Below are positions 19,839 through 30,632 of a stretch of DNA of 33,355 nt, piece by piece. The stretch is from a virus (Duplodnaviria; Heunggongvirae; Uroviricota; Caudoviricetes). A program made the translations under genes and the position numbers. The first letter of the stretch is position 1. Each line of letters opens with the position of its first letter. The DNA is taken from the IMG/VR virus record IMGVR_UViG_3300050187_000003, positions 139,576 to 172,930 of that record. One strand, given 5' to 3'. The notes beneath the pieces were generated by a model. That model did not search any database, was not told the DNA's origin, and saw only the letters and a list, made by a program, of their open reading frames with translations.

Positions 19839-20313
19839 GATCCGCCTCCCATGTTTGTTGGTAGTCCGGGTGCTGGGCGTATGCCGCAGCGAGCGCGAAC
19901 AGCGTCCGCCCGGACATGCTGACGTCGCCGTGTTCGGCGCAGTCGTCCACGATCCGCCGTTTGGCAGCAACGTCGGCGAGGACGTGGGCCGTGTCGTGGT
20001 GTGCGATGTGAAAGGCCGCGGCAGAACTCGTCTCGGCCTGACCTCGGATCACCAGATGCGGAATCGTTGCTCCCCATGTGGTGGGGTACTCCTCAACGCT
20101 GCGCAACCCGACGGAGGATCTGTCCACCCCTTGGACGTACGCGTCAAGCACCGGATCGATCCTGATTGGGGTGCCCGTTGCTTCGCACTCCCACCGCCAG
20201 TGTTCCCCTGCCGGGGTGTAGCGGTCTCCGTCGCGAGATGCCTCGTGTGCCCACATCTCCTCTTCGCCGTACCGGGCGCGCAGAAATGCGATCAGCGTGG
20301 AGGTTTCGCTCAT
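19825..20313 (-). CDS. DUF6221-like phage protein
   Basis: LIAFLRAR..EEE..A, HIA.HD..HVLADVAAKRRIV and LA.AYA.HPDY motifs. Confidence 0.8.
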   Translation of the reverse strand: MSETSTLIAFLRARYGEEEMWAHEASRDGDRYTPAGEHWRWECEATGTPIRIDPVLDAYVQGVDRSSVGLRSVEEYPTTWGATIPHLVIRGQAETSSAAAFHIAHHDTAHVLADVAAKRRIVDDCAEHGDVSMSGRTLFALAAAYAQHPDYQQTWEADLDPD

Positions 20314-20489
20314 GGACGCCAGCCCTTCTTCCAGTGCCGGGCCGCGTATGTCAGCAGGATGCGCACCATTTCCGACCGGTTCGGACGTCCGTCGGCTGTC
20401 GTCACGCCCTCGTCGGCGGCGAGTTGGTCGATCCGATCGACCGCACTCCACGAGACGCGGGCGTTGAGGTGTCTCCGTCCGGTGTGCAC
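20310..20489 (-). CDS. Ribbon-helix-helix (CopG/Arc-like) regulator, 59 aa, absent from the ORF track
   Basis: GGAGG then GTG; MHTGRRHLNARVSWSAVDRIDQLAADEGVTTADGRPNRSEMVRILLTYAARHWKKGWRP*; ATGA overlap with the next gene. Confidence 0.7.
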   Translation of the reverse strand: MHTGRRHLNARVSWSAVDRIDQLAADEGVTTADGRPNRSEMVRILLTYAARHWKKGWRP

Positions 20490-20507
20490 ACCACACCTCC
20501 GTCCAAC

Positions 20508-20516
20508 ATTTTAGCA
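20508..20516 (-). promoter_or_regulatory. Extended -10 promoter element (TGCTAAAAT) upstream of the RHH gene
   Basis: TGnTAAAAT in a rare AT-rich patch, 18 nt upstream of the GTG. Confidence 0.5.
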
Positions 20517-20627
20517 GATCAGGATGTGTGACAGTCTTTGACCCAGCCGAACCCGGCGCCGGTCTGCTGTTCGACTCCGACGCACCACAACGCGCGCAGC
20601 AACGCCACGATCCGGACGTCCAGGTCG

Positions 20628-21287
20628 TCAGTCGGGGTCGAGGTCGGCCTCCCACGCCTCCGAGAACTCCCGGTCTGCGAACAGTTCCGCCATCCCGGAC
20701 ACCTGCCGCAGGCGACGCACCTCGTCCAGGTCCATGCCCAGCTCCTTGGCGATCCACTGTTCGTCCTTGCCGTTGCGGTGCAACTCCAACACGATGTCCG
20801 ACATGGCGTCGACCTTGTGTTCGCCGCGGGCACGGTTGTGGCGGATGGTCGCGGCGACGCGGTCTTCCCGGCCGGTGCGTTCCGGGTTGATGACGGCGAT
20901 CGGTAGGCGTCCTCGGACGCGTTTGCGGACGGCGCCGACTTCCCGGCCGACACGGTTGCGGTGGAATCCGTCGACCACTTCGTAGCCGATGTCGGTGGGC
21001 CAGGCAACGATGGGCTGGGTGTACCCGTCCTGCATGATGGACAGCTTGAGGAGGTCCATCTCCGGTGGCGCCACCACGTTCGGGTTGTAGTTGTTAGCCT
21101 GAATTTGGTCTGCTTCGACCCACAGCACGCAATCGACCGGCTCGTCCTTCATCGGCGAGTGGTCGCGCAGAGCCAGGCGGATCTCGTTCACCGCGTCGAC
21201 CCGGGCCGCGTCCGGAAGGTCGGCGAGCCTCGCGAACAGCGTCCGAGCCTGTTCGACCAGCGCCTGCCCCATCAGGTCAAGCGGCAC
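20628..21287 (-). CDS. ibrB: IbrB-like ParB/Sulfiredoxin-domain protein
   Basis: EPVDCVLWV, ANNYNPNVVAPPEM.LL..SI..DGYTQPIV, VVDGFHR, ATIRHNRARG and a C-terminal HTH. Confidence 0.9.
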   Translation of the reverse strand: MPLDLMGQALVEQARTLFARLADLPDAARVDAVNEIRLALRDHSPMKDEPVDCVLWVEADQIQANNYNPNVVAPPEMDLLKLSIMQDGYTQPIVAWPTDIGYEVVDGFHRNRVGREVGAVRKRVRGRLPIAVINPERTGREDRVAATIRHNRARGEHKVDAMSDIVLELHRNGKDEQWIAKELGMDLDEVRRLRQVSGMAELFADREFSEAWEADLDPD

Positions 21288-21682
21288 GCCGCACCTCCAT
21301 GAACGAACCCTTCGGCTGGTGAACCTCGACCCCGTTGGCGAGCAGCACCGGCAGAACGACCTCCCCGCACACCGACGTAAAGGACCGGCCCTCGAAGTCG
21401 GCGAGGCGGGCCAGCAGCAGCATCCGCATACACACCCCGGCGACGATAGTCGGGCAGCGTGTATGCGGACTGGAACGTCACCCGGGCGCTGCCGTCACGG
21501 GCCGCGGCGAACCCGGCCACCTTCCGGCCTTCCACGGCGACGTACCAGCGTTTGTTGTCGTCGTCCCAGATGTGACCGCCGACCTCCTTCGCGATCTCCC
21601 GGCGGGCCAGGAACGGCCCCATGGTGGGGTAGAACGACCGGTCCAGGTTTGTCAGTTTGCGGAGAATCAGATCACCTGCCAT
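21277..21682 (-). pseudogene. GNAT-family acetyltransferase with a 1-nt insertion (frameshift near 21427)
   Basis: MAGDLILR...VAGFAA...SAYTLPDYRRRGVY (acetyl-CoA motif A). Removing one base restores YRMLLLARLADFEGRSFTSVCGEVVLPVLLANG...RRAA* (134 aa), ending over the ibrB start. Confidence 0.75.
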
Positions 21683-22887
21683 TCCTCTCGCCTCCTTCTC
21701 ATGCGCTCGCGGTAGCGGACGTACGCCTCCCCGGTCTTCGTCGGGGCGAACGACAGCGTCTTGCAGTGATAGTCGTACTTGAGCAGGGTCTTGCAGATTC
21801 GCGTCCACGACGGCTTGCCCTTCGTCGATGCCGGCCCTTCGTCGGGGATGCCGTTCGCGTACAGGCCCGGGGTCTTGACTGCGTACCAGCGTAGGAACAC
21901 GGCGATCTTGTCGCGGAAGTGGTCTGCCGTAGCCGGGGGCATCGACTCCAGGAGCCGGAACGCGAACTCCCGCCACGTGATCCCGTCCGGTTTCGTGACC
22001 TTGATCCGGCCCAGCACGTTGCCGGACTCACGGGCGTAGATCGCCCCGAAGTTCGCCCCGCTCACCCGGGCGACGACCCGCGCCCACGTCTCCGGCTCGA
22101 TGACCTGGTATAGCCACAGGCCACGCCGCTGGTCGTCGCCGTACGGCTGGCAGATCCGCGCCTGGTGGATCGACAGGCCAGCCTGATGCATGCGGTCGTA
22201 CAGCAGGTTGTACGGCACCCGCTCGCGGGCGCAGTACGTCCAGATGTCCTCGGTTGCCCAGTCGTAAATGGGATACGCGTTGTAGAGGGCTTCCCCGACC
22301 CATGTGGTCCACTGCATTCCGTCGTGGGTCTGCTTGCGGGGGGACGCGATCGTCCGCCACCGGTTTAGTGATTCGGCGGTGCGGATGCCCACGAAGCAGG
22401 CGGTCAGCTTGCCCTGCCCGTACCAGTGCCCGAACGCGGGGGTGAATTCCTCGAACTCCATCCGCCGCTTGAAGAACGGAAAGTAGCCCTCGTCGGTGAT
22501 GGCGTCCTTCGGCGGCTGCCGCACCCAGTCCTGCTCGCGGCCGGGTTCCCAGCACATCCACTGCGGCTCAAACTGGGACACCGCGTTGCGGAGGTTCAGC
22601 GGCAGCGACACCCAGTAGGGGTCGATGACGTCGGCGTGCCGGTCCAGCATGAGCCGGATGTAGTCGATCGTCAGCGTGTACTGGGCTTCGAGGTCAATAA
22701 ACATGACCCCGATGCGTCGACCGCGGCTGCGGGCCTCGTCGCAGACCAGCTCCATCATGACCCCGCTGTCCTTGCCTCCGGAGAAGGAGACGTAGATGCG
22801 GGGGAAGTCGTCGAAGACACGGGCGATGCGCTGTCGGGCGGCGGTCAGGACGTCGACGCCGAGGGGTTTCTTGAGTCGGCTAGCCAC
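21667..22887 (-). CDS. ibrA: IbrA-like PAPS-reductase (CysH) family / DUF3440 protein
   Basis: PP-loop YVSFSGGKDS, FIDLE, VGIRTAESLNR, YPIYDW..EDIW, RICQPYG, RVSGANFGAIY and PSW.RIC..LLK.D..CK.LSF. Confidence 0.92.
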   Translation of the reverse strand: MASRLKKPLGVDVLTAARQRIARVFDDFPRIYVSFSGGKDSGVMMELVCDEARSRGRRIGVMFIDLEAQYTLTIDYIRLMLDRHADVIDPYWVSLPLNLRNAVSQFEPQWMCWEPGREQDWVRQPPKDAITDEGYFPFFKRRMEFEEFTPAFGHWYGQGKLTACFVGIRTAESLNRWRTIASPRKQTHDGMQWTTWVGEALYNAYPIYDWATEDIWTYCARERVPYNLLYDRMHQAGLSIHQARICQPYGDDQRRGLWLYQVIEPETWARVVARVSGANFGAIYARESGNVLGRIKVTKPDGITWREFAFRLLESMPPATADHFRDKIAVFLRWYAVKTPGLYANGIPDEGPASTKGKPSWTRICKTLLKYDYHCKTLSFAPTKTGEAYVRYRERMRRRREEWQVI

Positions 22888-23204
22888 TGGTCCACCTCCT
22901 CTGCGGTCAGGTCGTGCACGTCTCCGTCATCGGTGACGGTCAGCCACCTCGTGGTCCAGCCGGAACGCCGGCCGGTTAGGTGGCGGGACTGGTAGACGCG
23001 CCCGGATTCCAACGTCCACCACAGCCACACCCCGTCTCCTTGTGCGCCTCGGGCTGCGGGGGTGTCTCGTTTCGCGGGCAGGAACCGCCGCTGGTAGCCG
23101 TAGGCCGGGTCCCGTCCGGTGATCTCCGCAACCCACGGTTTCGGTGCCCGGGTGGCTCGGTCGGGTGTCCACCCCCAGGCGCGGGCCGAGTAGGCGGCCT
23201 TCAC
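22845..23204 (-). CDS. Conserved hypothetical protein coupled to ibrA
   Basis: WVAEITG.DP.Y...R.FL...GV..WW.LESG.VY; overlaps both neighbours. Confidence 0.7.
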   Translation of the reverse strand: MKAAYSARAWGWTPDRATRAPKPWVAEITGRDPAYGYQRRFLPAKRDTPAARGAQGDGVWLWWTLESGRVYQSRHLTGRRSGWTTRWLTVTDDGDVHDLTAEEVDQWLADSRNPSASTS

Positions 23205-23551
23205 CGGTCAGCCTTAAGGTCTGTGCGTGCGCCTCGCCCGGGGCGGCGGCTGGCGCGTTCGCGGATGGGGGCCGGGTCGTAGAGGTTCTGCCCCGACCGG
23301 CCGGGCTGGCGGCCGGTCGGGGCGATGCCCCACGCGGAGAGTTGGGCGCGCGCTGAGGCGCGGGTGCCGAGGTTGAGAAACCGGGCCACGTCGTCGGTGG
23401 TCCATCGCGCCTCGGAGGGTTCAAGGTAAGCGCGGATGTCCGCGATCGCCTTCGCCCGGTCGTCGAGGGTGCAGTCGTTCAGGTCGGCGAGTGCCGCCGT
23501 GACGAGGTCGACGATGGGTTGGGGGTCGTGGCCGTGCGTGCTGTCCTCCAC
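23201..23551 (-). CDS. DNA-binding HTH protein with an N-terminal IbrB-like helical segment
   Basis: GTG 23551; C-terminal WTTDDVARFLNL...ARAQLSAWGI...LYDP...RPGRGARTDL; N-terminus aligns to the IbrB N-terminus. Confidence 0.65.
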   Translation of the reverse strand: MEDSTHGHDPQPIVDLVTAALADLNDCTLDDRAKAIADIRAYLEPSEARWTTDDVARFLNLGTRASARAQLSAWGIAPTGRQPGRSGQNLYDPAPIRERASRRPGRGARTDLKADR

Positions 23552-23582
23552 GCACGTAGCATTACTGCACTGCGTAGGAAAA

Positions 23583-24308
23583 TCAAGCGGGCTGGCACGG
23601 CATCCGACGCGATTCGTGGTGATACGGGGCGCGCACCGTCCCCGGCACCCCGCCCACCTGAGGAAACCACCGATCCTGCCACCGAACGGCAGCCTCCGGG
23701 TCCTCCACCACATCCAACGACAGAACCTGTCCCCACCCGTGCCGGGCCAGCCGACCCACATGCGTCAACCGGGACAGCAACTCCCGCAACCGGCCCGGAT
23801 CCGCCAACGCCCACCACGACATCCCATCCACCCACACCGCCTGATGCTGCATGTTCGCCGCCCGCCGCGGACCCAACGCCGGGTGATACCGCTCCGCCGC
23901 CGTCCACCGCACCATCTCGTCCACCGGTGGCCGTCTACGCACCTGCGCCACCGCATGCCGCACCACCCGGTACGAGGCGGCCGAACACGCCCACCCCCAC
24001 ACGGACACCCCATCGGCGCCCAGCAGCCGAGGATCCGGGTCGTCCCGGGTACACGCGGCAGTCCACGTCGCGAACGGTTGGACGAAGTCATGCGCCCACG
24101 ATCCCATCGGAGGAAGCCGCAGCGTCTCCCGATCAGCCGCGTCCAAAGCATCGAGGTACGCCGCCCACGACAGCGGCCCATCCAGGTGCATCGGATCCCG
24201 AGGCAGGCCAACAACCGGTTGGGCGAGACGCGCATCGACCCGCACCGGCGTCCACCGCCCATCCCCCGTGGTGTCGCCCACCGTGCCGGGACTTACCAGT
24301 CGGCTCAC
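23583..24308 (-). CDS. csf3: Type IV CRISPR-associated Csf3 (Cas5-like RAMP)
   Basis: P.RV.ARL..PV...P.HLDG.LSWA, WACS, LL..LTHVGRLARHGWGQV (G-rich loop) and RAPY; GTGA-coupled to csf2. Confidence 0.85.
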   Translation of the reverse strand: MSRLVSPGTVGDTTGDGRWTPVRVDARLAQPVVGLPRDPMHLDGPLSWAAYLDALDAADRETLRLPPMGSWAHDFVQPFATWTAACTRDDPDPRLLGADGVSVWGWACSAASYRVVRHAVAQVRRRPPVDEMVRWTAAERYHPALGPRRAANMQHQAVWVDGMSWWALADPGRLRELLSRLTHVGRLARHGWGQVLSLDVVEDPEAAVRWQDRWFPQVGGVPGTVRAPYHHESRRMPCQPA

Positions 24309-25186
24309 CGGCCGGCCGCCGCGGCGAGCATCGCCATCACCTCGCCCGCGTTGGCGGCCAACATCTCCGCGAGAGTCCCGTCACCGGCTGGCACCGCCGA
24401 CCAGTCGGCGTCGACCCGGCACAGGCCGTACCCCTGTGCCCGCTTCGCCCCCAGGTGCAGGGTGCCGGCGGCCGTCAGCCATCCCCACGCCGCCCGCAGC
24501 GCCTGAACGTGCGGAACGGTCGCGCAGGCCAACCGGAGGGTGCCGTACAAGGTGGCGCCGGCTTTCACCACCTGCCAGTCGTAGATCATCTGCGTGGTGC
24601 GGTCCTTCTCCGGTGTCCCCATCCACAGGTCGGCGTCAACCCACCTATCCACCGGCGCGCCCATCACGTCGTGACGGGTGCCGAACTCCTCATCCCGCAA
24701 CGCCGCGGCGGGCAGCACGGCGTGGGGATGAGTGCGCACCCCGGCCGGCAGCCGCCACGCGTTTTCCGCGCACACCAACCCGAGATGATCCACGTAGAGG
24801 GTGCCGGCCCAGATCTGTCCCCGACCCGAGTAGCCGAGCAGTCCCGCCGGCGGCCACGTCGCGTCGAGGCGCCGGTGTGCCGCCAGGTCGATCTGCGCGG
24901 ACTCGGCGGACGTCAACGCACCACCCGAGTACAAAAGGTCAACCGTCTGCTTGTTCAACGTCCCTGGGGTGGCGGCTACCGCGTCGAGGGTGAGTTCGGC
25001 GCACGCGTTACGGATGGCGTGCCGGAGGCTGTTCCCGGACACGAACGGCACCACTGCCGACGACCCGTCTGGTAGGACAACCTCCTGGGTGCGGAGGAGT
25101 TGGGAGTTGCCGGACGTTCCGGCACCGTGGTGCAGCGGCGACAGCAGGGTCAGGGTGAGTGGGATGGTGGCGGTGATCCGGGTCAT
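24305..25186 (-). CDS. csf2: Type IV CRISPR-associated Csf2 (Cas7-like RAMP backbone)
   Basis: ATG 25186; LTLLSPLHHG, VPFVSGNSLRHAIR, LLYSGGAL, GLLG, QMIY..Q....GA.L and LGAKRAQGYG. Confidence 0.92.
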   Translation of the reverse strand: MTRITATIPLTLTLLSPLHHGAGTSGNSQLLRTQEVVLPDGSSAVVPFVSGNSLRHAIRNACAELTLDAVAATPGTLNKQTVDLLYSGGALTSAESAQIDLAAHRRLDATWPPAGLLGYSGRGQIWAGTLYVDHLGLVCAENAWRLPAGVRTHPHAVLPAAALRDEEFGTRHDVMGAPVDRWVDADLWMGTPEKDRTTQMIYDWQVVKAGATLYGTLRLACATVPHVQALRAAWGWLTAAGTLHLGAKRAQGYGLCRVDADWSAVPAGDGTLAEMLAANAGEVMAMLAAAAGR

Positions 25187-25578
25187 CGGGCGTCCTCGGC
25201 AGGAGTTGGCTTGGCGCGGCGGGCGGTGCGCTGGTGGCGGACCAGTGCGGTGATGGTGAGGGCGTCGCGGGTGGCGAGGGTCCGCCAGCGAGCGAACACC
25301 TGCGGGTCGTCCAGGATGGTTGACAGGTCGGCGATGGTGGCCGACGACGACGCACTGAACGCGTCGACCTCCATCTTCTTCCCGGCCCGAGCGACGCACT
25401 GCCGCCATGACGTTGATGAGGCGGCGGCGGTTTCCAGGGCGGTCTTGGCTCGCTCCCACCAGCGGGCGACACCAATCCGGTTCACGTCGGCGGAGTCCAG
25501 CAGGGCGTAGAGGAAGCGTTCGGCGGCGCGGTGCAGGTCGAGGTCAGTCGGTGGGGTAGGTGCCGACGTAGTGGTCAA
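25183..25578 (-). CDS. cas11: Type IV-B small subunit (Cas11-like, all-helical)
   Basis: 131-aa helical protein (RWWERAKTALETAA...W..CV....KKM) between csf1 and csf2, the canonical IV-B position. Confidence 0.7.
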   Translation of the reverse strand: MTTTSAPTPPTDLDLHRAAERFLYALLDSADVNRIGVARWWERAKTALETAAASSTSWRQCVARAGKKMEVDAFSASSSATIADLSTILDDPQVFARWRTLATRDALTITALVRHQRTARRAKPTPAEDAR

Positions 25579-26275
25579 CGGTCTCCTTTGTGATCATCAG
25601 GTTGGCCAGATGCAGTAGCGGTGTTCCGAAGTGCGGCGCCAACTCGGCGGCGTGGGTCAGCCACACCGACAGCCGGTCGGGGGTGAGGGTGCCGACGGGC
25701 GGCTGCCCGGATTCGATGTGTTCGGCGCGGAACCCGGCCGCCCGCAGCGCCGCGGTGCGGGCCAACGCGGGCCGCCACTCGCTCGGGTCGGATGTGATGT
25801 CGCAGCCGTCGAGCTGCACCGACCAGCGTCGGTTGCCGTGGTTGACCGCGGTGAACGGGGCGGTGTGCTTCTGTCCGGTCTCGGCGACCGCCACCAGCCA
25901 CGCGGATCCGTCCCCGGGCGGGTCGGCGAGGGTGGCTGCGACCCAGCGCAGGTCCCGCCGGTTCGTCAGGTGCAGATGTTTCCCGGTGACGTAGGCGCCC
26001 GGCCGTGACGGCAGGGCGGGGACGTCAGTTCGGGCAACCACCGACCACATGCGGACCGTGTTCGGCGGCCGTCCGCCGAGGGTCCACGAACACGCCTGGC
26101 ACATGCGAGTGCCGTCGATACGTAACAGTTTGCGGTAGTCGGTGAAGTTCGGGCCGATGGTGGCGTGCAGCGGACCCTCGGCGCCGCACAGAGCGCACGG
26201 CCCGACGCCCTTCGCCGAGTCGGTCGGCGGCGGGCCGCCGGCGAGTTCCCAGATCAGGTGGCAGGCGTGGATCAC
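25544..26275 (-). CDS. csf1: Type IV large subunit Csf1 (Cas8-like)
   Basis: GTG 26275; Zn-finger CALCG...NFTD...MCQAC, L.DPP...W.V.VAETGQKH..PF..VN; first gene of the csf block. Confidence 0.82.
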   Translation of the reverse strand: MIHACHLIWELAGGPPPTDSAKGVGPCALCGAEGPLHATIGPNFTDYRKLLRIDGTRMCQACSWTLGGRPPNTVRMWSVVARTDVPALPSRPGAYVTGKHLHLTNRRDLRWVAATLADPPGDGSAWLVAVAETGQKHTAPFTAVNHGNRRWSVQLDGCDITSDPSEWRPALARTAALRAAGFRAEHIESGQPPVGTLTPDRLSVWLTHAAELAPHFGTPLLHLANLMITKETVDHYVGTYPTD

Positions 26276-26900
26276 GCGGCTTCCCAGATGGTCAGCCCGC
26301 AGCCCCACGTCTTGTCGATGCCGACCCCGGAGTGGAGCCGGTCCCGCATCGCCGCCGGGTCAACAACCTGCCACAGCGCCCGAACGACGACCCGACGGAC
26401 GGTGATGGTGCGGCCGGTGCGATGCCGTCCCTTGACCGTTTCTGCGCGGCTAGCGGTGAAGTCGAGCAGGTTCGCGCCATCGATGCGCCGTTCCAGCCAC
26501 GCCGCCTGCTCAACCGGGGTGGTGTACAGGGTCGGCGGGGCGTTCAACCGCTTCCGGTCCGGTTGGGCCGCGGTGGGTCCGCCGGTGGTGCCGTGCCTGG
26601 CCGGGTAACGACCGCGACCATCCGCCACACACCGGCCCGGTCCGGGACGTGCCATGGGCGGGACGCGATGACGCTGGCGTAGCCGCGGGGAAGCCGCGCT
26701 GCGGTGATCGGTTCGGGGGCGCGGATAACGAGCGCGTACCGCTGCGGCTGCGCCCACAAGACCCGGGCATCGTGGTCAGGCATGCCGACGGTGGCGTCGA
26801 TGATCCACCCATGCATGCGGCACAGGTCAGCGGTTTCGGCGCGAACCTCCGGATGGTCGCCGTTCAGGGTCAACGAGGTGAGTACCGGCTCCGCAGTCAC
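26272..26900 (-). pseudogene. cas6e: Cas6e (Cse3/CasE)-like endoribonuclease split by a 1-nt deletion near 26606
   Basis: N-half in ORF 26544..27194 (LTSLTLN..HP.VR....D...MH...RVLW) and C-half in ORF 26272..26757 (EQ.AWLERR, V.DP......L.SGVGIDKTWGCGL). Inserting one A gives RMVAVVNP (the ANP motif) and a 209-aa protein. Confidence 0.8.
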
Positions 26901-27003
26901 CGGCACCACCAGCCCGGGATAGGCCGAGACAGGGCGCGGCGGCGGTGGATGCGGCGGACCTTCGCGACTACGGCGGCGTGCCGAACCCAGCGTTCCAGAT
27001 CGC

Positions 27004-27279
27004 TCACCGCACCCACCGATCCGGGTCACCGTTCGGCAGTCCACGGCGGATCCCGCCACGCTGGTCTGCCTGGTCGTCGTACCGGCGTGGGATGGCGTGG
27101 ATGTGCAGGTGATGAACGGCGCGCCCGGCGGCGGTGCCGTCGTTGATGCCGATGTTCCAGCCGTCCGCGTCCGGAACGCTGCGGCGGACCGCATGGAGCA
27201 GGTCCCACATGTCGGCCCGCTCGGCGGCGGTGGCGTCGAAAATGCTCAGGACGTGAAGGCGGCAGGCGGTGTCGGTCAC
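27004..27279 (-). CDS. HIT-family nucleotide hydrolase, apparently N-terminally deleted
   Basis: WNIGINDGTAAGRAVHHLHIHAIPR histidine triad; lacks the usual N-terminal CxxC...GH segment. Confidence 0.8.
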   Translation of the reverse strand: MTDTACRLHVLSIFDATAAERADMWDLLHAVRRSVPDADGWNIGINDGTAAGRAVHHLHIHAIPRRYDDQADQRGGIRRGLPNGDPDRWVR

Positions 27280-27614
27280 CGCGCAGCCCTTCCGCTACGA
27301 AGCCGTTCGGTCGCGTCGTCTGGCATCGGCGAGCGCCACACCTCGTCGTCGCGTTTCACCATCCCGAACAGGGTCGGGTCGACGCACCGACCGTTGTCGC
27401 GGTGGCGGTCGAAGTTCGTCACCCCACCGAAGGTCATGTGGCAGACCGAGTAGTGCGCCTGCGATGGGGTTAGTGTCCGGCAGTCGGGTCCGCAGCGTGA
27501 CCCGAGCCGTCGTTCCGCGTTACACCGCAGACTACTGACGCCCGTTTGGCATTCAATGGTGGCAACGGTCGGAGTGGTGGGGTTCGTCGCTGCAGATTCG
27601 CTCTGAGGATTCAT
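27276..27614 (-). CDS. FDXHR-type phage zinc-binding protein
   Basis: AHYSVCHMTFGGVTNFDRHR...RCVDP; the usual first Cys of HCxxCH is Tyr here. Confidence 0.7.
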   Translation of the reverse strand: MNPQSESAATNPTTPTVATIECQTGVSSLRCNAERRLGSRCGPDCRTLTPSQAHYSVCHMTFGGVTNFDRHRDNGRCVDPTLFGMVKRDDEVWRSPMPDDATERLRSGRAAR

Positions 27615-27972
27615 CGGGATCTCCTTCGTCGTCGAGTAGGTCGAACAGGTTCAGTCCGTTGTCGGGTGGCGGTAGTCCGGGTGCCCGGATTCGGGGCCGC
27701 GGCGTTGGGGTCAGCCCGGCGCGGCGTGCGCATGTGATCCCCCTGCCCTGGATTACCGGCCCGGTTCGGATCCACCGGCGGCAGCACGCGCAGCGCACGG
27801 GTAGGATCGGGCCGGGGATCAGGGCGTTCGTCGCCGGTCCCGCGTGCGCTGCCGCGGTGTGGCCCGGGCTGTGCGATGGGGTGTGGCGGTGCGTGGTCTG
27901 GTCGGCGAGCATCGCCTTCACGGTCCGGTCATGATCGCGCATGGCGCGGTCGTCGGGACGGTCACGCCGCAC
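27553..27972 (-). CDS. Zn-finger hypothetical protein (DUF6011-like)
   Basis: RCACCRRWI.......G.G.TCARRAG. Confidence 0.45.
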   Translation of the reverse strand: MRRDRPDDRAMRDHDRTVKAMLADQTTHRHTPSHSPGHTAAAHAGPATNALIPGPILPVRCACCRRWIRTGPVIQGRGITCARRAGLTPTPRPRIRAPGLPPPDNGLNLFDLLDDEGDPDESSERICSDEPHHSDRCHH

Positions 27973-29272
27973 CGCCGAATATGGGCAGCGCGCCCTGGAT
28001 CGGCTTCCGCAGCCGGGCTGCGATCAGCGGCAGGTAGTCAGGGTTGCTTTCCATGCCGACAAACCGGAAGCCCTCGACCATGCACGCCTCTGCGGTCGTC
28101 CCCGACCCGAGGAACGGATCCACGACCAGGCCGCCGGGCTGAGTGACGAGCCGGACTAACCATCGCATCAACCCGAGCGGCTTCACGCTCACGTGCTGCT
28201 CACCGTTGGCGCCGCGGGGCCGCTCTCCGCTGGCGGCTTTGGCCTCAAATCGGAAGACGGGGAAGAACCGCGACGCGCCGCCGTGGTCGTTGTACTCGGC
28301 GCCGGTTACGGTAGTGCGCCACCCGTTGCCGGGTTTGCCGGTGCGCGGCTCTCCCGCGCTGCTGGTTGACGCGCCGCTCTGCGCGTCCATTTCGGCAACT
28401 GGGCATCCCGTGACGCATCCGTTGGCGCACCCGTCGCCCGTATCACCGGACTTCGGGGCGTGGGACAGGACCACGTTCGTCGGCCACCGCCCGGGAATAC
28501 GGCAGCCGTCCACGTTCAGCGCCCCGGTGCCGTGCAAGAGCACGTTCTGCGCGACGGTTCCCGCGGGTATCTTCCTGGCGGACACGATGACCTCGTGCGC
28601 CGGCTTGAGGGCGGTCCCCCATCCTGACCACTTCAAAGCCGCCGCGGTCGCTGGCCGGGTGATCGGGTACGCCTCCGGTGTCAAGTTGGTCAGGTTCGGC
28701 CGGTAGCCGGACGCAACTCGCCTGACACGTTCCAGGCTTGACGCGCCAGCGCGTCCGGTGCCGATCACCTCGCGTTCGGCGCCTGCCTGTCTGTCGATGG
28801 CCGCCGACACGTCATGGCTTTTCGGCATTCCCTGCGCGTAGATCCATTTGATGCTGTCGCGGATTTCGAACCCGGACAGCCGGATCGACATGGTCATCAG
28901 GTCCGCTGTCCGGGACGCGGCGAACGCCAGCAGATGACCGCCCGGCTTCAACACCCGCCAGCACTCATCCCACACCGCTGGCGGCGGCACGAACCGATCC
29001 CACCGTCGGCCCATGAACCCCTTTCCGTCCGGGACGTGCTCGCGGTCTCCGGACAGCCACGCCCGCAACGCGGCCTCGATCACGCGCGGGTGGTGGTCGG
29101 AAAGCCCGTACGGCGGATCCGTCACAATGGCGTCGACCGACTCGGCGGGCATCCGACGTAGCGCGTCGAGGCAGTCCTCGCCGTAGACAACGGCCGCCCC
29201 GTCTGCATAGTACATGACGGGGCCTGCCGTCCCGGGGTCCGAACGGCGGGCGTGGAGGTTGTGGGGGTGCAT
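27962..29272 (-). CDS. DNA N6-adenine/N4-cytosine methyltransferase (beta class)
   Basis: IVTDPPY, RVLKPGG, H..VKP..LMRWLVRL and VVDPFLGSGTT. May start at ATG 29216 (MYYADG). Confidence 0.95.
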   Translation of the reverse strand: MHPHNLHARRSDPGTAGPVMYYADGAAVVYGEDCLDALRRMPAESVDAIVTDPPYGLSDHHPRVIEAALRAWLSGDREHVPDGKGFMGRRWDRFVPPPAVWDECWRVLKPGGHLLAFAASRTADLMTMSIRLSGFEIRDSIKWIYAQGMPKSHDVSAAIDRQAGAEREVIGTGRAGASSLERVRRVASGYRPNLTNLTPEAYPITRPATAAALKWSGWGTALKPAHEVIVSARKIPAGTVAQNVLLHGTGALNVDGCRIPGRWPTNVVLSHAPKSGDTGDGCANGCVTGCPVAEMDAQSGASTSSAGEPRTGKPGNGWRTTVTGAEYNDHGGASRFFPVFRFEAKAASGERPRGANGEQHVSVKPLGLMRWLVRLVTQPGGLVVDPFLGSGTTAEACMVEGFRFVGMESNPDYLPLIAARLRKPIQGALPIFGGAA

Positions 29273-29292
29273 GGCGGCTCCCGGGGGTTGGG

Positions 29293-29319
29293 GCCGGCCG
29301 CCCCGGGTGGGCGGCCGGC
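29293..29319. terminator. Perfect 11-bp GC stem-loop (possible terminator or RNA-processing site)
   Basis: GCCGGCCGCCC-CGGGT-GGGCGGCCGGC in the intergenic gap; no U-tract. Confidence 0.4.
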
Positions 29320-29337
29320 GCGATGGCGGTCAGGTGG

Positions 29338-29454
29338 TTAGCCGGCCCACAGCCAGGTGAGGCCGGCGGCGAGGGTGAGGGTGAGGGTGGCGGTGGCGAG
29401 GAGTTCGCCGCAGCCACGGGTGTGCGGTGTGGGACCACGCTCCGAGCTGCTCAT
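29338..29454 (-). CDS. Small membrane peptide (38 aa)
   Basis: ATGA-coupled to the C5-MTase stop; MSSSERGPTPHTRGCGELLATATLTLTLAAGLTWLWAG* has a hydrophobic C-terminal helix. Confidence 0.45.
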   Translation of the reverse strand: MSSSERGPTPHTRGCGELLATATLTLTLAAGLTWLWAG

Positions 29455-30632
29455 GGTGTGTCCGCTGCCAGCAGACGCAGAGCGGTAGGCCATGTTGGCA
29501 GCGTCGGCAACGCGAGCATGACCTGCTGACCGACCACACCGTTTCCCGCGATCCGGATCACGTCACCACGCGGCACCACATCGGTGATCCAACCCGAACG
29601 CAGGCCCATCATCCACTCGCAGAACGAGGCCGTCAGCCGCGGCCTGCCCAGCCGGCCGGGCTCCGTCGGGTCCGGTGCGGCGAACCCGAAAACGAGCTCC
29701 TGCTGTCGGACGGCGGCGGCGTACCGGCCGAAACGGGACGGCAGCATCAGGTCACCGGATGAACCCCGCTGATTCGGGCCGCCCTTGTTCGCGTCCGATG
29801 ACCGCGGTGTCGGCAACAGCGCAGCCACCTCGGACAGCGGACGCCCGGGGCGCTCACCCCACCCCGACCCGCGACTCGCGTCTCGCGCTGTCGGAGTCGG
29901 CAGCGGCTGCCACGACGGTGGTGCCTCGTCCCACGACCGCAACTCGCGCGGCAGGTCACCCCGGTCAGCGCCGCACGTCTCCACCGGCAACGGCCACACC
30001 AGCCCGGCACGGGACACCCCCGACGCAGGCCACCTCACCGCCTCGACATCACCGAACAGCACATCCTGGACCGGCGCCCAGGCGCCGCCGTGGCGCGACG
30101 CGACCGGCTCCGCCGGCGGCACCGCCACCGCATCCGACCGGACCGCCAGCACGAACAGGCGGTGCCGGTGATGGCAGGCACCGACCCGGCACGCCCCGAC
30201 CGTCGTCCACGCCGTCGAATAGCCCAACATGTCCAGATCTGCGAGGATGCGCGCGAACACCGCTCCCCGTCCGACCGTCAGCAGTCCGGGCACGTTTTCC
30301 AACACGGCGACCGCCGGCATCAGTGCCTCAACCGCGGGCAGGACCCCGGTTGGCCAGAGGTGCCGCTCGTCGCCGGCTCCCCCTTGTTTGCCGGCGTTGG
30401 AGAATGGCTGGCAGGGGAAACCGGCGCCGAGCACGTCGACCGGCTGGATGGTCGGCCAGTCCACGGCGGCAACGTCGCCCAGGTTCGGCACGTCGGGCCA
30501 GTGCCGAACCAGCACCCGCGACGCCGCATCGTCCAACTCGGCCTGCCATGCGGTGTTCGCGCCGAACAGGCACTCCAGGGCGCTGTCCAGCATCCCGGCG
30601 CCGCTGCACAGTGACCCGATTCGGATGGTCAT
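29451..30632 (-). CDS. DNA (cytosine-5)-methyltransferase
   Basis: ATG 30632; IGSLCSGAG, GFPCQPFS.AG (catalytic PC), LENV.GL, H.RHRLF, LPTP repeats and GNGVV. Confidence 0.95.
   Translation of the reverse strand: MTIRIGSLCSGAGMLDSALECLFGANTAWQAELDDAASRVLVRHWPDVPNLGDVAAVDWPTIQPVDVLGAGFPCQPFSNAGKQGGAGDERHLWPTGVLPAVEALMPAVAVLENVPGLLTVGRGAVFARILADLDMLGYSTAWTTVGACRVGACHHRHRLFVLAVRSDAVAVPPAEPVASRHGGAWAPVQDVLFGDVEAVRWPASGVSRAGLVWPLPVETCGADRGDLPRELRSWDEAPPSWQPLPTPTARDASRGSGWGERPGRPLSEVAALLPTPRSSDANKGGPNQRGSSGDLMLPSRFGRYAAAVRQQELVFGFAAPDPTEPGRLGRPRLTASFCEWMMGLRSGWITDVVPRGDVIRIAGNGVVGQQVMLALPTLPTWPTALRLLAADTP

Follow-up and report, generated by a model that had tools for sequence, protein, structure and literature searches.

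The window analysed here, a stretch of 33,355 nucleotides, is the right end (positions 139,576-172,930) of a metagenome-derived viral contig, IMG/VR record IMGVR_UViG_3300050187_000003. The record is linear, 172,930 bp long, 68.5% G+C and 99% complete according to CheckV. Genes around the element of interest, a split cas6e, lie on the minus strand throughout, in the order DNA methyltransferase, phage zinc-binding protein, HIT-domain open reading frame (ORF), cas6e, csf1, cas11-like, csf2, csf3, two small ORFs, cysH/IbrA-like, GNAT and ParB/IbrB-like (Table 1; coordinates are window positions unless marked genome). The locus is a CRISPR-Cas system of type IV-B with its own Cas6e, of a form widespread in actinomycete phages, and is represented here by a freshly broken or mis-assembled copy. 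A preliminary description, made from the sequence of the window, had proposed that a Cas6e heads an array-less IV-B operon, that two overlapping frames hold its N- and C-terminal halves, that a single base missing near 26606 breaks its N-P motif, that repair restores a protein of 209 amino acids (aa), and that its stop overlaps the csf1 start. All of this is borne out by the analysis that follows.

Table 1 Features of the cas6e-csf locus and of the host array that targets a related prophage
Feature	Position	Strand	Remarks
cas6e-like N-terminal segment	26607..26900	-	98 codons; GTG start at 26900; putative catalytic His30 in DLCRMH
Broken Asn codon of the invariant N-P	26605..26606	-	2/3 bases present; downstream reading passes to the -1 frame
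Premature TGA in the N-terminal frame	26544..26546	-	20 codons beyond the break; ORF 26544..27194
cas6e-like C-terminal segment	26272..26604	-	110 codons (26604-26275) plus TGA 26274-26272; glycine-rich loop GVGIDKTWGCGL
csf1, Cas8-like large subunit, 243 aa	25544..26275	-	75-76% identity to the gene after cas6e in L003 and L004; named by position and size
cas11-like small subunit	25183..25578	-	the gene lying between csf1 and csf2 in L003 and L004 (107-127 aa) is 68-74% identical
csf2 (type IV Cas7)	24305..25189	-	TIGR03115, E 1.5e-6; family profile versus 7JHY Csf2, E 1.4e-18
csf3 (type IV Cas5)	23583..24308	-	TIGR03116, E 2.3e-19; PF27782 on orthologues
cysH-like/IbrA-like, PAPS-reductase domain plus DUF3440	21667..22887	-	PF01507, E 1e-15; PF11922, E 3e-30; 83% identity to the L003 orthologue
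GNAT acetyltransferase, frameshifted	21286..21682	-	one extra base at ~21427, between the codons for ...GVY and RML...
ParB/IbrB-like, end of the conserved block	20628..21287	-	81% identity to the L003 orthologue; ParB_N on the orthologue
Type I-E array of P. limicola (L014)	G001:C40:11070-13660
Prophage of P. limicola matched by that array	G001:C1:~62-85 kb

The reading frame of cas6e is interrupted where a single base is missing. Frame A begins with the GTG at 26900, extends to 26607 and specifies 98 residues ending in ...VWRMVAVV; frame B, entered at 26604, reads PARHGTTGGPT... and continues to ...GVGIDKTWGCGLTIWEAA before its TGA. When compared by BLASTP with the intact orthologue P0002, both segments aligned without gaps, the N-terminal one on residues 5-97 (56% identity) and the C-terminal one on residues 99-205 (66%). 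The sole P0002 residue left unaligned is residue 98, the Asn of the N-P motif, which is invariant in the alignment of the clade. At this point the window reads GTT-A.C-CCG, short of one base next to 26606 in codon 99, and repair of this codon gives the 209-aa product. As written, the gene can only yield a 118-residue N-terminal fragment, terminated by the premature TGA at 26546-26544, and possibly a 127-residue C-terminal fragment. At its 3' end, the cas6e stop overlaps the csf1 start in the tetranucleotide GTGA, with the csf1 GTG at 26275-26273. Both halves are otherwise intact, with the invariant residues kept and no second lesion, and the lesion is therefore either very recent or an assembly error.

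The two halves belong to a single Cas6e-family protein. PF08798 (Cas6e/CasE) matches them over consecutive profile ranges, positions 3-74 for the N half (E 1.1e-3, 19.7 bits) and positions 130-218 for the C half (E 3.9e-11, 44 bits against a cut-off of 25), and a six-frame search of the whole genome with this profile returned the same two pieces and no others. A profile of the clade matched Thermus thermophilus Cse3 (2y8w) over its full length with an E-value of 1.6e-15, and E. coli CasE more weakly. Cas6e enzymes carry their catalytic histidine in helix 1, as His26 in Thermus and His20 in E. coli. The invariant His of the clade, His30 in the window protein, aligns to His26 of Thermus Cse3. 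Across 18 diverse members, neither this residue nor four glycines in the C-terminal loop vary, and the window copy retains all of them. An AlphaFold2 model of the intact orthologue P0003, rather than of the broken window protein, was obtained with a mean predicted local distance difference test (pLDDT) score of 86.8 and a predicted template-modelling (pTM) score of 0.83, and contains two ferredoxin-like, or RNA recognition motif (RRM), domains with Cse3 topology. In a Foldseek search of this model against the PDB, the ten best matches were all Cse3 chains, with template-modelling (TM) scores of 0.73-0.78 and E-values down to 8e-17; E. coli CasE gave a TM score of 0.71 and other Cas6 families scored much lower. 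The Cas6 match anticipated for the repaired protein was thus found at the level of both profile and structure.

The divergence of this protein is also evident. P0003 missed the equivalog cut-off of TIGR01907, scoring 20.1 against 45.2 bits. Compared with the canonical Cas6e of a related prophage's own host, the phage-clade Cas6e showed 41% identity over 44 residues, confined to the Gly-rich loop region, and is therefore not a recent capture from the host. Judged from its profile matches and predicted fold, the split gene is a genuine but divergent Cas6e-family endoribonuclease gene.

We then considered the class of the operon that this gene heads. Type I-E cas neighbours and a cognate array were not found for the window cas6e; its neighbours are csf1, cas11, csf2 and csf3. 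Csf2 and Csf3 are both recognized by profile, with NCBIfam scores below the curated equivalog cut-offs. The putative csf1 and cas11 genes have the right size and position and are conserved in all relatives. Their only family record is a 'faint' PF27781 match on the L032 orthologue; no Pfam match was obtained for the window csf1, even at E <= 1, and no Pfam or NCBIfam match for either the window csf1 or the cas11-like gene. A cysH-like accessory gene, as present here, is a marker of subtype IV-B. Among the annotated genes of the block 20628-27279, there was no DinG/RecD helicase, Cas10-HD or adaptation gene. Subtype IV-B is usually recognized by having no Cas6, and in this operon a Cas6e-family gene comes first. 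The locus is most aptly filed under subtype IV-B, as a variant bearing Cas6e.

The association of cas6e with csf genes extends well beyond the window. We examined 11 loci (L003, L004, L005/L007, L006, L008, L009, L019/L020, L024, L032, the P0155 contig and G347) and found cas6e inside the related csf locus in all 11, heading the operon directly upstream of csf1 in 10 of them; the adjacency of cas6 to related csf operons, on which the first interpretation depended, is thus the rule. Intact orthologues are 188-238 aa long, mostly about 200, and six intact relatives of 208-238 aa share 46-66% identity with the C-terminal part of the window protein. In L003, a 102.9-kb JGI contig with holin and lysin genes, an intact cas6e-csf1-cas11-csf2-csf3 operon continues into cysH-GNAT-ParB. 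L004, a 34.5-kb contig with WhiB, has the same intact operon and stops within the cysH-like gene. More distant Csf2 relatives, at 43-53% identity, occur in a prophage of Phytoactinopolyspora limicola (L005 and L007, which are one locus) and in the viral records L008 and L009, and in L005, L008 and L009 a Cas6e-like ORF lies immediately upstream of csf1. Genome G347 shows the same cas6e-csf arrangement; in the Brevibacterium otitidis locus the Cas6e-like gene is detectable by the Pfam model only. The overlap between the cas6e stop and the csf1 start recurs in L003, L004, L019, L024 and L032. A PAPS_reduct gene is found in L003, L019, L020, L032 and the P0155 contig, and a tblastn search detected no cysH-like gene within 7 kb in L005-L009.

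An exhaustive hidden Markov model (HMM) search of 1.84 billion cluster representatives with the clade profile gave 3,567 matches with E-values up to 1e-3; 508, which are clusters at 50% identity, reached 1e-10 or better, and 25 reached 1e-30 or better. Four sampled matches had enough flanking sequence for inspection (P0014, P0090, P0120 and P0155); all four lie in csf loci and in phage-like contexts, and three carry a PAPS-reductase gene. On the P0155 contig (Logan SRR19603264) the operon is rearranged to csf1-like, cas11-like, csf2-like, PAPS-reductase, Csf3, a 239-aa gene and finally cas6e. With cas6e still present after this rearrangement, the gene evidently stays with the csf genes despite a change of order. 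The Cas6e-bearing IV-B system is not a one-off: the variant is conserved, and it is widespread among the phages and prophages of actinomycetes. Taken together, the Cas6e identity of the split gene, its break and its membership of a conserved operon are nearly certain.

Given that the break itself is clear, we asked whether it belongs to the phage or to the assembly. We ran a Viterbi frame tracker based on codon position (G+C content at third positions, GC3) over the whole record and inspected the switches by hand; the tracker is insensitive near gene ends and in weakly coding stretches. It flagged 22 and then 10 switches, and on inspection all except those in cas6e (placed at 26607/26608) and GNAT looked like ordinary gene boundaries. 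Clear within-gene frameshifts in 173 kb thus number two, both in the same locus, with GNAT 5 kb downstream of cas6e. The GNAT switch was placed at ~21446, and in a tblastn search with the intact 135-aa L003 GNAT, residues 1-102 and 86-132 matched in different frames; apart from the extra base, the GNAT gene is pristine. Neither indel lies within a long homopolymer. The confinement of both frameshifts to this locus and the lack of a long homopolymer argue for relaxed selection on the locus in this lineage.

The competing explanation is an assembly or sequencing error, in which case the real phage would have an intact 209-aa Cas6e and an intact GNAT, no decay would have occurred, and the true sequence at 26600-26610 would read GTTAACCCGG. 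The state of the gene weighs against a real mutation and fits this explanation just as well: both halves align gap-free to intact orthologues, keep their invariant residues and show no further lesion, and the out-of-frame C half is if anything better conserved than the N half. A second single-base indel in a neighbouring conserved gene and the metagenomic origin of the contig are also compatible with error. In contrast, the frame scan found no other clear frameshift in the remaining ~166 kb, indicating that the assembly is not generally indel-prone, and two random errors falling in one 6-kb locus would be improbable (~4% for the second, given the first); the sequence context of the indels, free of long homopolymers, speaks against error as well. 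An error is accordingly a strong contender, at a little under even odds, and we lean slightly towards a real and very recent mutation. Decay towards the canonical Cas6-less IV-B state is a possibility.

A third explanation, that ribosomal -1 frameshifting or transcriptional slippage yields the full-length protein, gains something from the fact that passage from the N frame to the C frame needs a -1 shift, the usual direction of programmed frameshifting. However, the sequence GTC-GTT-ACC-CGG contains neither a slippery heptamer of the form X-XXY-YYZ nor a homopolymer, and each of the 18 aligned orthologues is one continuous ORF that has N-P at the break site. With the slippery site absent, programmed frameshifting was rejected as highly improbable. 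Further copies of the broken gene were sought by exact-pattern scans across the break, with 1-4 bases allowed at the lesion, and no other phage copy was found in metagenome and viral contig collections. Megablast of positions 21000-29500 against GenBank phages gave no match, nor did a scan of viral contigs with the back-translated peptide of the C half.

An operon headed by a Cas6e raises the question of its RNA. We scanned the record for at least three copies of a 10-mer or at least two copies of a 12-mer at 45-90 bp spacing, and this k-mer scan found no CRISPR array in the whole 172,930 bp, its sole returns being a tandem repeat of 24 bp in coding sequence and a palindrome of 21 bp that occurs in clusters. 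A repeat search of positions 20000-29500 showed nothing array-like, nor did the same kind of scan on the loci of six relatives. The tandem repeat, GACGCTGGCCGAGCCGAACGCCTC and variants in about 13 copies, lies outside the window at genome 6320-6640 in a minus-strand coding region, and is probably part of a repetitive structural protein rather than a CRISPR array. The palindrome, TTAGTCCGCC-W-GGCGGACTAA, clusters outside the window in an AT-rich intergenic region at genome 41110-41320 (six copies), and palindromes of the same type recur at genome 94470-94545 (three copies 32 bp apart). These clusters look like operator or centromere-type protein-binding sites, and a comparison with Rfam gave spurious miRNA matches only.

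The preliminary description had also pointed to the region 26901-27003 as a leader, a suggestion that did not hold up. These 103 nt fold no better than shuffled sequence (z = +1.37) and have no Rfam match, and relatives do not conserve the intergenic region upstream of cas6e: in L004 cas6e overlaps its upstream neighbour, and in L003 that neighbour is a different gene. Nor was any conserved non-coding element seen beside the operon. The HIT-domain ORF directly upstream of cas6e (27004-27279, minus strand, 91 aa) matches positions 36-96 of the 98-position HIT profile and retains HxHxH; it either lacks its N-terminal third or has that part covered by the zinc-binding-protein gene before it, and the ORF may be truncated.

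One isolated hairpin lies elsewhere in the genome. At genome 67973-67998, outside the window, the sequence GTGCCCCGC-TCGCTA-GCGGGGCAAAC resembles the I-E repeats of actinomycetes, such as GTGCTCCCCGCGGACGCGGGGATGATCC of P. limicola. It lies in a 720-nt non-coding stretch of lower G+C content, ~80 nt upstream of a gene on the minus strand. Its folding surpasses that of shuffled sequence (z = -3.3). The hairpin may serve Cas6e as a substrate, may be a solitary repeat resembling an RNA anti-CRISPR, or may have arisen by chance. The CCCCGC..GCGGGG stems of G003 and G004 were considered as solitary repeats and rejected, being inside long ORFs, one of them in a methyltransferase gene.

Such a hairpin illustrates the alternative that Cas6e acts on a non-CRISPR hairpin RNA of phage or host, for example the one at genome 67,976, and thereby gives the Csf proteins a fixed scaffold or guide, with the CRISPR RNAs (crRNAs) of host I-E systems uninvolved. 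The lack of an array in any csf locus scanned is in keeping with this alternative, as are the non-coding setting and folding of the hairpin and the finding that the IV-B complex of Mycobacterium sp. JS623 binds heterogeneous non-CRISPR RNA (PMC7937560). Yet this is a solitary instance, chance alone would give about three bare CCCCGC..GCGGGG stems in the phage genome, and no counterpart was found in relatives, the G003 and G004 stems lying in coding sequence and G005 having none. Nor does the operon offer a conserved non-coding element, a folded upstream region or an Rfam match, and the co-occurrence with host I-E systems described below would be left unexplained. We consider this alternative unlikely.

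The host link was examined in relatives with known hosts, P. limicola (G001), B. otitidis (G002) and G347. In all three host genomes, a canonical Cas6e (198-225 bits) is present besides the IV-B Cas6e, compared with 43 of 401 genomes in a sample of the class (10.7% background). All three hosts also have I-E arrays with CCCCGC-N4-GCGGGG repeat stems, and in P. limicola the cas3-cse1-cse2-cas7-cas5-cas6e-cas1-cas2 ORFs are full length. Some of these arrays are directed at the resident prophage. Five of the 38 spacers of P. limicola HAJB-30 agree with its own IV-B prophage in 32-33 of 33 bases, four perfectly and one with a single mismatch; each match has AA directly upstream, as expected of an AAG-type protospacer-adjacent motif (PAM), and two of the five were confirmed in the same assembly. 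In B. otitidis, one of 11 spacers matches its own prophage at 33 of 35 positions (L015 versus G002:C46:106525-106557), ~1.6 kb from cas6e. No P. limicola or B. otitidis spacer matches the window phage. That lysogens put up with self-targets flanked by a PAM implies a block on I-E interference by the prophage.

We turn to a likely mechanism for the intact relatives. Here cas6e is the first, translationally coupled gene of a phage effector operon, cas6e-csf1-cas11-csf2-csf3, in a phage that has no array. We infer an RNA substrate, an assembly with Csf proteins and a biological outcome as follows. The phage Cas6e would bind the CCCCGC...GCGGGG repeat hairpins of host I-E pre-crRNA, and its conserved His, as predicted, would probably cleave them. 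Cas6e would then remain on the 3' hairpin and nucleate a Csf complex on host guides, so that guides may be withdrawn from the host Cascade, redirected to the phage's own use, or both, possibly with the involvement of the cysH/IbrA-like, GNAT and ParB-like enzymes. Capture of host I-E crRNA is our leading idea, held tentatively. For the best explanation as a whole, this mechanism included, we give a rough probability of 0.4.

A bolder form, which might be termed 'guide piracy', is more doubtful still. It holds that the phage Cas6e seizes host I-E pre-crRNA by its repeat hairpin and loads the guides into Csf, disarming Cascade, and maybe turns the spacers on competing phages or to nucleic-acid modification by cysH/IbrA-GNAT-ParB; the broken copy would mark a lineage that no longer meets I-E hosts. 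Disarming Cascade in this way would account for the tolerance that lysogens show towards I-E spacers directed at their resident prophage.

The same self-targeting can be accommodated if Cas6e works in counter-defence on its own, as a decoy that ties up host I-E pre-crRNA or processes it wrongly outside any Csf complex, its place in the operon reflecting co-regulation only. The arrays aimed at resident prophages suit this explanation, as does the known attack of phages on crRNA biogenesis with repeat mimics (PMC10651486). However, cas6e and csf1 are translationally coupled in the window and in five relatives, and cas6e has been kept in csf loci by lineages whose Csf2 identity falls to 43%, even after reordering, which is more than co-regulation requires. 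We regard a stand-alone decoy as improbable.

Several observations weigh against the capture of host crRNA by a Cas6e-Csf complex. The co-occurrence comes from three genomes, uncorrected for phylogeny, and the host evidence is drawn from the hosts of relatives. In G347, no prophage match was seen among six recoverable spacers, the array being masked and running into the contig end. Tyr23 of Thermus Cse3 is Cys in the phage Cas6e clade, and judging from this substitution catalysis may differ from that of Cse3. Capture of I-E pre-crRNA for Csf would block interference, and an ordinary anti-CRISPR (Acr) protein would do so equally. No enrichment of I-E crRNAs was seen in the JS623 complex, which has no Cas6, even with an I-E Cas6 and array co-expressed (PMC7937560), and IV-B systems overall correlate negatively with I-E (PMC7038947); neither of these studies concerned the Cas6e-bearing form. 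The earlier interpretation is upheld in part; for its suggestion that the phage may use host I-E crRNA, the co-occurrence (3/3 versus 10.7%) and the self-targeting in two hosts are circumstantial evidence, and the failure of the JS623 complex to take up I-E crRNA goes against it. A complex prediction of Cas6e with Csf2 scored 0.45, with one control at 0.28, and was not used for or against the mechanism.

It has long been asked which RNA partners type IV-B systems and what biological role they play, and the only solved complex bound random RNA. A phage clade that keeps a predicted, catalytically plausible Cas6e at the head of the operon, in lysogenic hosts with I-E arrays of which some are aimed at the prophage, changes the situation: since Cas6e has a defined hairpin substrate, the IV-B RNA question becomes directly testable. 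The interest lies in the clade rather than in the window copy, as the variant has been briefly mentioned in the literature and the copy here is broken. Nevertheless, the window copy, with a neighbouring accessory gene (GNAT) broken too, offers a natural loss-of-function or an assembly point for checking.

Compared with known systems, the phage protein is closest to the I-E Cas6e (T. thermophilus Cse3 2Y8W, 2Y9H, 1WJ9; E. coli CasE 4DZD, 4TVX), with which it shares PF08798, the double ferredoxin-like fold (TM 0.78), a catalytic His in the corresponding place, an N-P motif and, towards the C terminus, a G-x-G-x-x-K-x-x-G-x-G-L loop. It differs in its low identity (~25%), its shorter length and the Cys in place of Tyr23, and in that the window copy is broken. 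Unlike the I-E enzyme, it is encoded with csf genes in phages and not with cas3-cse1-cse2-cas7-cas5-cas1-cas2 and an array. The operon as a whole resembles the IV-B locus of the Mycobacterium sp. JS623 megaplasmid (7JHY; PMC7937560) in having csf1-cas11-csf2-csf3 with a cysH-like gene and no array, adaptation genes, helicase or nuclease. In contrast, the JS623 system is plasmid-borne and has no Cas6, whereas the phage clade has its own Cas6e in first place and resides in phages and prophages; its cysH-like gene is of the IbrA type (DUF3440) and is followed by GNAT and ParB/IbrB-like genes.

A type IV effector with a recruited Cas6e-related RNase is also found in IV-A3, which correlates positively with host I-E systems and uses I-E-like repeats (PMC7038947, PMC8175902). 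IV-A3 differs from the phage clade in having DinG and its own CRISPR array, in being without Cas11 and cysH, and in its location on proteobacterial conjugative plasmids. For IV-B itself, reviews and the 2025 classification describe systems without Cas6 and arrays (PMC8175902, PMC12669027), and our literature search found no paper that brings together Cas6e, type IV, prophage and Actinobacteria. Pinilla-Redondo et al. 2019 (PMC7038947) noted, in one clause with no description or analysis, 12 IV-B loci with Cas6 as 'rare exceptions'. As here, these are IV-B loci with cas6, largely in Actinobacteria and sometimes in prophages, and they are probably the same phenomenon as the clade described above, whose many profile matches indicate that Cas6e-bearing IV-B systems are common in phage metagenomes rather than rare.

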